A stretch of DNA of 64,000 nt from Escherichia virus TH57, in the sequence record MT446422.1; one strand, given 5' to 3'. Each line of letters starts with the position of its first letter. Position 1 is the stretch's first letter. The position numbers and the translations under genes are program-made. The notes under the pieces were generated by a model. That model did no database searches. It was not told the origin of the DNA and saw only the letters and a list, made by a program, of their open reading frames with translations. Below, one piece after another: positions 2,716 to 5,382 of the stretch.

Positions 2716-3084
2716 ATGATGGAAACTGGTAAATTTTATACATTAGACCCTGCTGCCAAAAAACAATTCATCGCTGGTAGCCCTGATGACAATTCGCGCA
2801 TGGTCAAGCTGATGGAACAGCATGGCAGTTCCTTCAAAGTCCTGGATATGTGCTTTATTGATGGCGATTATTTTGTTGAAAAAGTTGAAATGAAAGATGG
2901 TACCATCTTGGATAGTATGGATGATGCTGATGAGTACTTTGAACTCGCTGAATGGGAATTCCGCCACTTCCTGGAAGTTGATGAAGATGCTCCTGTTGTT
3001 GACACGCAAACCATTCATGTGCAGGTTAATCACAAAAATGCTGCTGAAGTCATTGCCTTGATTAAAGCTACCTTTGGAATTTAA
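2716..3084 (+). CDS. hypothetical early protein (paralog family with 3404..3766 and 17128..17670)
   Basis: 122-aa ORF with SD GAGGAAA; shares N-terminal GKFY...AKKQFIAG and C-terminal DDYFEL...EEEF motifs with 3404..3766. Confidence 0.5.
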   Translation: MMETGKFYTLDPAAKKQFIAGSPDDNSRMVKLMEQHGSSFKVLDMCFIDGDYFVEKVEMKDGTILDSMDDADEYFELAEWEFRHFLEVDEDAPVVDTQTIHVQVNHKNAAEVIALIKATFGI

Positions 3085-3085
3085 T

Positions 3086-3340
3086 ATGACTAAAGATGAT
3101 TTCCTGGATGCAGTAGAAAAAGCCAGCGAACAGTTTGAAGTGATGGGTGTACGTGTCCATAAAGACCGAAATTACGGACTTGATGTTCAAACGTATTCTC
3201 TATGGCTTGTAGGCGAGCATAGTCTTGTAACCACTTTAGTTATGGGTGTAGATACTTATCCTTTGTTAGTCAAGTTCAGAAGTCTGGAAAAAGCTACTAA
3301 AGAAATGACCAAACTTGGTAAATGGCTCGACAAAATTTAA
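3086..3340 (+). CDS. hypothetical early protein
   Basis: Track ORF 3074..3340 begins at TTG; first ATG at 3086 (MTKDDF). Confidence 0.4.
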   Translation: MTKDDFLDAVEKASEQFEVMGVRVHKDRNYGLDVQTYSLWLVGEHSLVTTLVMGVDTYPLLVKFRSLEKATKEMTKLGKWLDKI

Positions 3341-3403
3341 AAAGTTGTTTGCACTATCTTTAAACATGATATTATACCTATCAAAACAAATGAGGAAATT
3401 AAA

Positions 3404-3766
3404 ATGGAAATCGGCAAAAAATATGAGTTCAATCCAAATCGTATTAAATCTTTCATTGATAATAGTTCATCGAATGCTAGTATGGTTGACATCATCCAAG
3501 AAAATGGTGGTTGGTTTGAAGTTAAATCAATATCAAGGGCAGACGGTCTTGATTATGTAACCGAAATCATTTGCGCTAACGGTGCAATCTATAATGATGA
3601 TGGTATGGGTGATGATTATTTTGAACTTAGTGAAGAAGAGTTTTATTGCTTCCGAGAATACTCCAGTTATACAAAAACACCTTCAGGAGCGGTTTCTATT
3701 AATTGTGTTGTAGATGCTAATAACGTCGACCAAATCATTGAACTTCTGCAAAAAGCTTTCAAATAA
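3404..3766 (+). CDS. hypothetical early protein (paralog of 2716..3084)
   Basis: 120-aa ORF, SD GAGGAAA; shares motifs with 2716..3084. Confidence 0.5.
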   Translation: MEIGKKYEFNPNRIKSFIDNSSSNASMVDIIQENGGWFEVKSISRADGLDYVTEIICANGAIYNDDGMGDDYFELSEEEFYCFREYSSYTKTPSGAVSINCVVDANNVDQIIELLQKAFK

Positions 3767-3769
3767 CAG

Positions 3770-3805
3770 TTTACAAAGGGTCTATGGTTGAGATATTATA
3801 GACCT
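3770..3805 (+). promoter_or_regulatory. T4-type early promoter with dyad symmetry across the -10
   Basis: TTTACA, ~17 nt, ATATTA/TATTAT; inverted repeat GGTCTAT...ATAGACC flanks the -10. Confidence 0.45.
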
Positions 3806-3828
3806 ATCAACTACCTGAGGAAAATAAA

Positions 3829-4056
3829 ATGGCTAAAGTTAATATTGATATTGTTGATTTTGAATACACTTACGAAGTTATCCGTAATCGTTATCCTTCT
3901 TTGAGTATGACTTATATTAAAGATACCCAATTCTTCAGTATCCAAATTGAAATCCAAGGTCCTCTTGAAGACCTTACTCGTTTTATGACTGACGAGTATT
4001 GTGATGGTATGCATGTTGAAGATGCTGAATTTTATATGGGCTTAATCCAAAAATAA
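3829..4056 (+). CDS. hypothetical early protein
   Basis: 75-aa ORF with SD GAGGAAAA 7 nt upstream. Confidence 0.45.
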
Positions 4057-4058
4057 AT

Positions 4059-4093
4059 GTTTACAACAGGCTATGGTAATGATACTATAGCCT
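4059..4093 (+). promoter_or_regulatory. T4-type early promoter with dyad symmetry across the -10
   Basis: GTTTACA, 17 nt, TACTAT; inverted repeat AGGCTAT...ATAGCCT. Confidence 0.45.
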
Positions 4094-4114
4094 TACCAAC
4101 TTGAGGAGAATAAA

Positions 4115-4354
4115 ATGAAATTACAACGTGAGAGCATCAAAGATTCAGAAGTTAAAGGTAAATGGTACTTCACAATCCAGGGTAACAATCCAGAAGCTCT
4201 GGAAAAAGCTGAAGAAACTTTGTGTGCAATGGGTTGGAAAGATGAGTGTGATGGTTGTCCTCTTTATGAAGATGGTAGCTCATCTGGTTTCTGGATTCAT
4301 CACTCTGACGTTGACCAATTTAAAGCTGACTGGAAAGTCGCTAAGAAAGCGTGA
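4115..4354 (+). CDS. hypothetical early protein (Cys-containing, 79 aa)
   Basis: ORF with SD GAGGAGAA. Confidence 0.45.
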   Translation: MKLQRESIKDSEVKGKWYFTIQGNNPEALEKAEETLCAMGWKDECDGCPLYEDGSSSGFWIHHSDVDQFKADWKVAKKA

Positions 4355-4364
4355 GGAAAATAAT

Positions 4365-4724
4365 ATGTCCGACATTCATGTAACCGGAATTACCCAAGTA
4401 AGAATTCATTGCCAACTTAAAACTGCACCCGGGATGGCTTATATTAATTTATCACATGACCTAGATTCTCGCGAAAGTCTGTTAACTGGTGTAATTACGT
4501 TTTACACTGGAATCGGCGGAAACGAATTTACTGTAGGCGAGATTGTTGGTCATAAATTAAAAGTTCAGAAGAACGTGTTAGAACTTTTTAATGACCTTTA
4601 TGATGATAGCGATGAAGTTTTTGATGAAATCACACAAGCAGTTAACAAAGGAATGGTAACTTTAGTTAAAATGATTAACTCTATTGGATATGCTCCTGAC
4701 CCTTTTCGATGGGAGATAATATAA
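4365..4724 (+). CDS. hypothetical early protein
   Basis: Track ORF 4128..4724; start placed at Met 80 (MSDIHV), which has SD GAGGAAAA. Confidence 0.45.
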   Translation: MSDIHVTGITQVRIHCQLKTAPGMAYINLSHDLDSRESLLTGVITFYTGIGGNEFTVGEIVGHKLKVQKNVLELFNDLYDDSDEVFDEITQAVNKGMVTLVKMINSIGYAPDPFRWEII

Positions 4725-4816
4725 TTTTTGTATTTGAGTTTATGAATGATGAATTCTATTATGCAATGCTTTAAAAATTGTATAGTCTTGATTTAAATGA
4801 ATTTGAGGAAAATATA

Positions 4817-5158
4817 ATGCTTACTGAATACACTTGCTTTGCTAAAGATGATGCACATCCTGAACTGATTCTTGAAGTTAAGGTTAATACGCTTGAACAA
4901 AAATTTGATTGGAGCCTTTACATCTATCCTAAAAATATTATTGATGGTCCACAGAAATATACGCTTAATGACAAGTGCATTAGTGGTATCATTGGATATG
5001 GTACAAGTGGAAGCAAGTATTCATTAGAAGATATTCGTCAATCTCGTTGTGCGGTATCATATTTTGATACAGATATAATTAAACATCTTTATAAATTGGT
5101 TCTTGATATTCGCAAAGATTTTACTGCCATCAAAAAGGCAACTAAGGAATTAAAATGA
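4817..5158 (+). CDS. hypothetical early protein
   Basis: Track ORF 4778..5158 begins at TTG; ATG at 4817 follows SD GAGGAAAA. Confidence 0.45.
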   Translation: MLTEYTCFAKDDAHPELILEVKVNTLEQKFDWSLYIYPKNIIDGPQKYTLNDKCISGIIGYGTSGSKYSLEDIRQSRCAVSYFDTDIIKHLYKLVLDIRKDFTAIKKATKELK

Positions 5159-5382
5159 TTGTGGTATTTGAATATCATGATAGTGATAGCTGGACACTCT
5201 TCACCGCATTAAATGACCCTGATGCTGGTGAATTTGAAAAGGCCTTTAATGATGCAGCTGATATGTCTGTGAACAACTATGAATTATTTAAAGCAGCAGT
5301 GACACTTTTTAAAGATGGTGTTAAAATAGATGCAGACATTTTCTATGACACAAATGAAGCTATTGCATGGTGGGAAAAATGA
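5155..5382 (+). CDS. hypothetical early protein (frd-upstream small ORF)
   Basis: 75-aa ORF, start overlaps upstream stop (ATGA), stop overlaps frd start. Confidence 0.45.

Follow-up and report, generated by a model that had tools for sequence, protein, structure and literature searches.

Hyperplastic regions of T4-type phages have been described in which repeated units made of an early promoter and a stem-loop (PeSLs) flank small ORFans and mediate their modular shuffling (Arbiol et al. 2010, PMC2839356; Comeau et al. 2014, PMC4122927). The promoter of the T4/PST-type PeSL follows the pattern TTTACW-N17-TAYWAT (PMC4122927), and PeSL mini-circles have been sought in infected cells by inverse polymerase chain reaction (PMC2839356). 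In T4 itself, the gene order around frd, the dihydrofolate reductase gene, is 59, segG, 32, frd.3, frd.2, frd.1 and frd. Here, we analyzed the corresponding interval of Escherichia virus TH57 (MT446422.1) in a stretch of 64,000 nt (hereafter the window, always at its full length), which from position 1131 on belongs to a T4-like phage (genus Gaprivervirus). Between the end of gene 32 (2601) and the start of frd (5379) lies an interval of 2,777 nt with a block of eight small genes at 2716-5382, which we number P1 to P8 in order along the plus strand. The locus is of a known kind, a T-even hyperplastic region of catalogued families, and it is a new arrangement of known parts. We put a probability of roughly 0.75 on the reading that these are accessory genes of a Gaprivervirus in a hyperplastic region, which holds seven phage-only families and was built by recombination at repeated cassettes.

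An earlier reading made from the letters alone (the sequence-only reading) had placed eight consecutive open reading frames (ORFs) of 75-122 aa in this block, and all eight are there, all on the plus strand. The upstream edge of the block is an intrinsic terminator after gene 32 (2605-2634, plus strand; 8-bp G+C-rich stem and then a T-run, AAGGGACCTTAGGGTCCCTT + TTTTATTTTC). The first gene, P1 (2716-3084), encodes Frd.2a, an FRD2 protein of 122 aa with an isoelectric point (pI) of 4.4 (phrog_622), and is followed by P2 (3086-3340), whose product of the JS98 gp232 type (phrog_4423) has 84 aa counted from its ATG, the ORF list having 88 aa from an upstream TTG. P3 (3404-3766) encodes Frd.2b, a second FRD2 protein (120 aa, pI 4.2), P4 (3829-4056) encodes Frd.3 of the Phage_FRD3 family (75 aa, pI 4.3), and P5 (4115-4354) encodes Frd.1 (79 aa, DUF5417). 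The last three genes are P6 (4365-4724; 119 aa, DUF7247), P7 (4817-5158; 113 aa, phrog_8592, JS98 gp228 type) and P8 (5155-5382; 75 aa, pI 4.05, phrog_3183, SP18 gp248 / RB32 ORF231c type), and frd (5379-5960, plus strand) anchors the interval downstream. Six of the eight products have a pI of 4.05-5.06.

The interval shares its slot, strand and neighbors with that of T4, and P4, P3 and P5 are orthologues of T4 Frd.3, Frd.2 and Frd.1 with 73%, 76% and 72% identity, respectively. The differences lie in number and order: T4 has three genes where the window has eight, and in the window a Frd.2 copy comes first and Frd.3 fourth. The window further has four families that T4 lacks, and a second Frd.2 with 32% identity to the other copy. 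According to the sequence-only reading, T4 holds only segG and frd.1-3 here; the three frd genes are indeed in the interval, but segG lies between 59 and 32. Its picture of a cassette, larger than that of T4, whose small early genes have no known function agrees with our results, and the outcome that would have spoken against it, namely that all the ORFs are well-characterized genes of known function, did not arise, since every matching family lacks a known function.

Comparison with 20 loci from related phages revealed 3 to 8 genes drawn from one pool and arranged in at least seven orders, and the window has the largest set. Its region 2600-5400 is 97% identical to ECML-359 and 92-93% identical to CJ20, VR20 and SP18, and in INPHARED, where ~357 phage genomes matched, no record covers more than 81% of the interval. 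All eight genes are found, at 88-100% protein identity, among ECML-359, SP18, CJ20, VR20, VR25, VR26 and wV7, and these Gapriverviruses and wV7 have the same regulatory cassettes as the window. From gene 32 to frd, the order is frd.3, frd.2, P2, frd.1, P6, P7 in wV7; frd.2b, frd.2a, P2, frd.1, P7, P8 in SP18; frd.2b, frd.3, frd.2a, P2, frd.1, P7, P8 in CJ20 and VR20; frd.2a, P2, frd.3, frd.1, P7, P8 in VR26; and frd.2a, P2, frd.3, frd.1, P6, P7 in ECML-359. The order in the window is frd.2a, P2, frd.2b, frd.3, frd.1, P6, P7, P8, the union of these sets. ECML-359 differs from the window in having neither frd.2b nor P8, SP18, CJ20 and the VR phages differ in having no P6, and SP18, CJ20 and VR20 differ in that gene 32 is immediately followed by frd.2b. 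The slot between frd.1 and P7 (4355-4816) is a swap site: it contains the DUF7247 gene in the window, wV7 and ECML-359, an unrelated ORF of ~82 aa in JS98 and another in VR5 (comparison loci L012, 5404-5663, and L018, 5461-5663), and it is empty in SP18 and VR26. The eight-gene order is new to the phage collection searched and was seen only in two independent Logan assemblies, both of which have these eight genes arranged as in the window; the identity to the window is 100% over 1131-9724 for one of them and 99% for the other.

P1-P8 are real coding genes under purifying selection, because the ratio of nonsynonymous to synonymous substitution (dN/dS) is well below 1, coding density is 89% of 2716-5382 on a single strand, and the arrangement is identical in the two independent assemblies. 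Read pairwise against homologues in related loci wherever dS exceeded 0.05, dN/dS was 0.00-0.3 across P1-P8 (0.05-0.3 for P1, 0.03-0.18 for P4), and gp32 and frd gave similar values. All eight ORFs match PHROG profiles (E from 1e-28 to 1e-75), and five of them match Pfam (E from 1e-30 to 1e-37).

The regulatory sequences between the genes are repeated. The four intergenic spaces of ~60 nt upstream of P1, P3, P4 and P5 are mutually homologous (66% mean identity), and each is a cassette on the plus strand that joins an early-type promoter match to a ribosome-site motif. Cassette 1 (2643-2718) contains a -35 element GTGTACA, N17 and the -10 element CATAAT (2667-2672), and then the ribosome-site motif TGAGGAAATTAAAATG at 2703-2718; cassette 2 (3341-3406) contains TTTGCA, N16 and the -10 element TATTAT (3370-3375), and then TGAGGAAATTAAAATG. 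Cassettes 3 (3767-3831) and 4 (4057-4117) are of the PeSL type and fit TTTACW-N17-TAYWAT: the -35 element TTTACA is at 3770-3775 and 4060-4065, the -10 element is TATTAT at 3794-3799 and TACTAT at 4083-4088, and the ribosome-site motif is at 3816-3831 and 4102-4117, respectively. In our scan for the early-promoter pattern (GT[T/G]T[A/G]CA, N16-18, TAYWAT or CATAAT), the four matches of the T4 early type lay 55-70 nt upstream of P1, P3, P4 and P5, which agrees with the earlier statement that several of the ORFs have their own early promoter; the matches are conserved across relatives, and they are consensus matches and not mapped transcription starts. A match to a sigma-70-like early promoter, repeated in the intergenic spaces of a hyperplastic region as in the PeSL systems, is present in four cassettes. 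One and the same cassette sequence precedes frd.3 in VR20 and in the window, and frd.2a in SP18.

The stems associated with cassettes 3 and 4 differ from those of described PeSLs in enclosing the -10 element. In cassette 3 the arms are at 3779-3785 and 3798-3804, and in cassette 4 at 4068-4078 and 4083-4093, where the fold of -7.6 kcal/mol (z=-3.3) is significantly better than that of shuffled sequence. A terminator function of these stems is doubtful, since the stem encloses the -10 element and no T-run follows it in either cassette. In wV7 (L006), both arms of the stem at 4068-4093 upstream of frd.1 are changed while pairing is kept (GGCTAT/ATAGCC to GGGTA/TACCC), and this compensatory change hints that the hairpin upstream of frd.1 may itself be under selection.

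Translation signals are repeated as well. A 16-nt ribosome-site motif, TGAGGAAAATAAAATG, stands ahead of six ORFs with at most one mismatch, and a census of the 64-kb window with two mismatches allowed found eleven copies, where 0.15 are expected, six of the eleven being within the 2.7-kb block. P8 has AAGGA as its ribosome site. The claim that each ORF has a strong Shine-Dalgarno (SD) sequence agrees with the shared motif of the six ORFs, but P2 has none; because P2 lacks an SD sequence and starts 1 nt past the P1 stop codon, it is, judging from this layout, translationally coupled to P1. ATGA overlaps join P7 to P8 and P8 to frd. The 92-nt spacer upstream of P7 (4725-4816, plus strand) contains weak promoter-like matches only, with the ribosome-site motif at 4804-4819; we considered a MotA-type middle promoter there and rejected it, because the TGCTTTA box and the nearest -10-like hexamer are just 7 nt apart, too short a distance. 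Neither the late promoter TATAAATA nor a full MotA box was found in the region, and there was no Rfam match in 1500-6500. From the promoter matches and from knowledge of the T4 orthologues, we infer that P1-P8 are probably expressed early.

The positions at which genes were gained or lost fall at these repeated sequences. Aligned with ECML-359, the window has exactly two insertions, 3408-3779 (frd.2b) and 5161-5375 (P8), and aligned with VR26 and SP18 it has an insertion at 4363-4803 (P6). Read at the base level, the frd.2b segment is flanked by two copies of the promoter/ribosome-site cassette, cassette 2 being its left junction relative to ECML-359. The P6 segment is flanked by an 11-nt direct repeat, TGAGGAAAATA (4352-4362 and 4804-4814), and begins after the first copy, and the P8 segment is flanked by a 9-nt direct repeat, AAAATGATT (5152-5160 and 5376-5384), start codons included. 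For frd.2b, P6 and P8 alike, the junctions of the insertions and deletions lie inside the cassettes, and their placement between the -10 element, SD sequence and ATG is a further likeness to PeSLs.

Identity to Tequatroviruses is also distributed in patches, with 4044-5160 reaching 95.8% to wV7 and 3388-3660 reaching 92% to T4, while the flanks of these patches are 67-76% identical. High-identity Tequatrovirus patches inside such flanks show what appears to be exchange across genera. The T4-like patch coincides with the N-terminal two-thirds of frd.2b and corresponds to T4 frd.2 (L003, 4274-4547), with flanking genes at 70-76% identity; this suggests that only the predicted barrel domain of Frd.2b may have been recently exchanged between genera.

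On the reading that we favor, homologous and microhomology recombination between repeated regulatory sequences would have assembled the block, and because of such recombination related phages would hold differing subsets and orders of one gene pool, of which this phage would have the union. The eight genes (Frd.2a, JS98-gp232-type, Frd.2b, Frd.3, Frd.1, DUF7247, JS98-gp228-type and SP18-gp248-type) represent seven unrelated families; all-against-all hhalign comparison of the seven gave probabilities below 1% and no hidden paralogy. Early expression would start from the four repeated promoter/ribosome-site cassettes and would otherwise depend on translational coupling, with P1-P2, P3, P4, P5-P6 and P7-P8-frd as the apparent expression units. 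Because the products are small and mostly acidic, they would be expected to be stoichiometric binders that tune infection to certain hosts or conditions, and not essential enzymes.

Several observations weigh against this reading. First, the cassettes fit the classic PeSL definition of a promoter with a terminator hairpin only in part, because the cassette 3 stem is weak (-4.1 kcal/mol, z=-0.3) and cassettes 1 and 2 have no convincing stem, so that two of the four cassettes are stemless; the 5' arm of cassette 3 is, moreover, non-complementary in VR5 and L017. Second, two of the three junctions rest on 9-11 nt of ribosome-site/start-codon microhomology and not on a whole cassette, which is again a difference from the described PeSLs, and recombination is deduced from its end products. 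Third, a generic promoter scan of the whole region gave no excess of sites over shuffled sequence (19 versus 17.1), and the early timing and promoter activity are deduced from consensus matches. Finally, the functional half of the reading is drawn from how small the products are, from the low pI that six of them share and from the uneven occurrence of the genes among phages.

The family assignments contradict the earlier statement that none of the ORFs carries a recognizable motif, as five of the eight match curated Pfam families: FRD2 twice (P1 and P3), FRD3 (P4), DUF5417/Frd.1 (P5) and DUF7247 (P6). P1, P3, P4 and P5 are orthologues or paralogues of T4 frd.1, frd.2 and frd.3. With gathering scores of 29 bits for FRD2, 28.1 for Phage_FRD3, 23.9 for DUF5417 and 27 for DUF7247, P1 scored 115.3 bits (E=2e-33) and P3 120.9 bits (E=4e-35) against FRD2 (PF03197), both covering profile positions 1-95 of 96; P4 scored 127.1 bits against PF05798 (E=4e-37, positions 1-75 of 75), P5 121.7 bits against PF17438 (E=1.5e-35) and P6 105.6 bits against PF23905 (E=3e-30). 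P1 and P3 are paralogues that align at 32% identity, and the invariant FRD2 residues of the two are common to T4, wV7, JS98 and SP18. In P5, the motif DECDGCPLYEDG is invariant in 15 aligned sequences; a zinc site in this protein was considered and dropped, as the invariant cysteines are only two (CxxC), too few to claim one. P2, P7 and P8 have no Pfam family and are placed in PHROG families only. Homologues are present in 351 phage records for P2, 459 for P6, 79 for P7 and 441 for P8, and in the public records checked for naming all homologues of P1-P8 are hypothetical proteins, apart from one label on a P7 homologue in EAWsc9.

The P6 gene is missing from T4 and most Gapriverviruses, and the copy in the window is 98% identical to that of the Tequatrovirus wV7. 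DUF7247 and P8-like genes are adjacent in some Tequatroviruses (L014 and L015). On a Logan contig, a 196-aa read-through ORF (P0025) joins a DUF7247 protein to a P8-like protein, and either a frameshift in the sequencing or a genuine fusion could explain it.

What the products do is the next matter to weigh. The sequence-only reading considered such cassettes to be typically host-takeover or anti-defence genes, and in its full form this would make P1-P8 a battery of effectors, each inhibiting one host immune or housekeeping factor. As a statement on function, this reading is compatible with the structural explanation given earlier. It is consistent with the small products, the pI of at most 5.1 in six of the eight, the layout of the genes as early-type expression modules, presence and absence that differ between near-identical phages, the duplication of Frd.2 with divergence to 32% identity, the spread of P2 over four phage families and the dispensability of the T4 orthologues in laboratory hosts. 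All of this is circumstantial, however, and fits any accessory gene, and no product resembles a named inhibitor. For P1-P8, NCBIfam gave nothing, and neither did PADLOC, whose models cover defence systems and are not an anti-defence protein library; searches of Protein Data Bank (PDB) sequences, with single sequences and with alignment profiles, gave no match at E<0.001, and fold searches with AlphaFold (AF2) models of P2 and P7 gave no informative structural neighbors. Similarity to catalogued defence proteins or to named inhibitors represented in the PDB was thus found neither by sequence nor, for P2 and P7, by fold; these searches were uninformative for anti-defence, none of them being an anti-defence protein library. 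Searching the literature for the DUF names yielded papers on unrelated subjects only. We regard the anti-defence and takeover reading as possible but tentative.

The dispensability of the T4 orthologues follows from published data. In the CRISPRi-ART screen of T4 (PMC11879866, supplementary file 15), frd.1, frd.3 and frd were 'Not Fit', and frd.2 was marginally 'Fit' (score 0.83, p 0.027), the only T4 gene of unknown function so scored (PMC11879866); Kim et al. 2025 (PMC12152347) report normal plating of a T4 frd.2 amber mutant. From these scores and this plating, frd.1 and frd.3 are dispensable in T4 and frd.2 is marginal. The mRNA of frd.3 is among the abundant NAD-capped T4 transcripts (bioRxiv 10.1101/2024.04.04.588121). 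The products of the block look like non-essential, stoichiometric binders whose value depends on host or conditions, and it is in this sense that we infer their role.

A more specific proposal, which we consider unlikely, is that at least one product is a new kind of host-factor or immune inhibitor, or that Frd.2a and Frd.2b are RNA-binding regulators with different targets. The best inhibitor candidate would be P2, on account of its confidently predicted fold without structural relatives, its occurrence in four phage groups and its constant coupling behind Frd.2 in T-even phages. Its AlphaFold model is a compact helix, three strands and a helix, and the protein is common to Straboviridae, Phapecoctavirus, Drexlerviridae and Vequintavirinae. 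In 15 of 15 T-even loci carrying P2, it is located 1-8 nt behind a gene of the Frd.2 family, of either subtype, and an FRD2 domain was not found in the neighbors of four distant P2 homologues (Phapecoctavirus, Webervirus, Christensenvirus and Vequintavirinae).

Equally unlikely, though worth setting out, is that both Frd.2 copies are RNA-directed post-transcriptional regulators. Both P1 and P3 are strong FRD2 members, and Kim et al. 2025 (PMC12152347) describe for T4 Frd.2, GoF and MotB.1 a predicted N-terminal LSm-like/SH3-like barrel of five bent strands; the T4 Frd.2 modelled there has 76% identity to P3, and the 'Fit' score of frd.2 would agree with a regulatory role. The LSm-like fold is predicted and not solved, however, and in that paper RNA stability was changed only by the mutant GoF(D25Y), not by wild-type GoF or MotB.1, while the frd.2 amber mutant plated normally. 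The window differs from the described GoF/MotB.1/Frd.2 family in having two diverged copies in one locus.

It is very unlikely that the small proteins serve the deoxynucleotide-synthesis machinery of the phage, whether as accessory subunits or as regulators. Such a role would account for the constant position of the genes beside frd, td and nrdA in all loci examined and for the overlapping start and stop codons of P7, P8 and frd. However, the set of small genes changes freely from phage to phage next to an unchanging frd, td and nrdA, P2 homologues occur in other phage families outside any nucleotide-metabolism context, and the position is explained equally well by a site behind the gene 32 terminator at which insertions are tolerated.

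The label on the P7 homologue of EAWsc9 (L005, 3339-3680), 'type II toxin-antitoxin system PemK/MazF family toxin', would make P7 an endoribonuclease toxin of the MazF/PemK type. The labelled protein is 96% identical to P7, and with ~113 aa and strands followed by a C-terminal helix P7 has a superficial likeness to MazF in size, which together with the database label is the whole of the resemblance. Profiles and model give the label no support. P7 had no PemK/MazF match in Pfam at E<=0.1 or in NCBIfam at E<=1, and its predicted fold, a four-strand meander followed by helices (four strands and four helices in the AF2 model), is not the seven-strand MazF/CcdB barrel. A profile scan of 1.84 billion representative proteins with P7 returned its own two clusters and one marginal repeat protein only, the family being very narrow (seven clusters at 90% identity and two at 50%). 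We consider the toxin reading largely refuted. The view that AT-rich spacer DNA has by chance given rise to some or all of these ORFs, as their shortness and the mostly hypothetical annotations might suggest, is already refuted by the conservation pattern, with dN/dS well below 1, strong family-profile matches, conserved ribosome sites and dense one-strand coding.

On the hyperplastic-region reading, the locus is a clean and well-documented example of cassette shuffling: three junctions of insertions and deletions are placed at single-base resolution, and the slot that separates frd.1 from P7 has at least three alternative genes. Its practical use is modest: the eight conserved, selected and uncharacterized early genes form a compact set to test against defence-carrying E. 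coli, T4 having three of the seven families. The correction of the misleading 'MazF toxin' label matters for the safety screening of therapeutic phages, as the label could spread through annotations.

Elsewhere in the window, the first 1,130 bases are not from a T-even phage. Their G+C content is 55-60% and their identity to Serratia phage JS26 is 80.8%, and they contain a gene for a Dam-type N6-adenine methyltransferase (108-854, minus strand). Gene 59 is cut by the junction at 1130/1131, and an assembly that is otherwise identical has this gene whole. Since these bases are foreign to a T-even phage and gene 59 is cut at the junction, the window joins two sequences, at a record boundary or through a chimera. 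Downstream of frd, td is intronless, an uninterrupted ORF of 286 aa, and the place that nrdA.1 and nrdA.2 occupy in T4, between td and nrdA, is taken by a 99-aa DUF4326 ORF (6879-7178).

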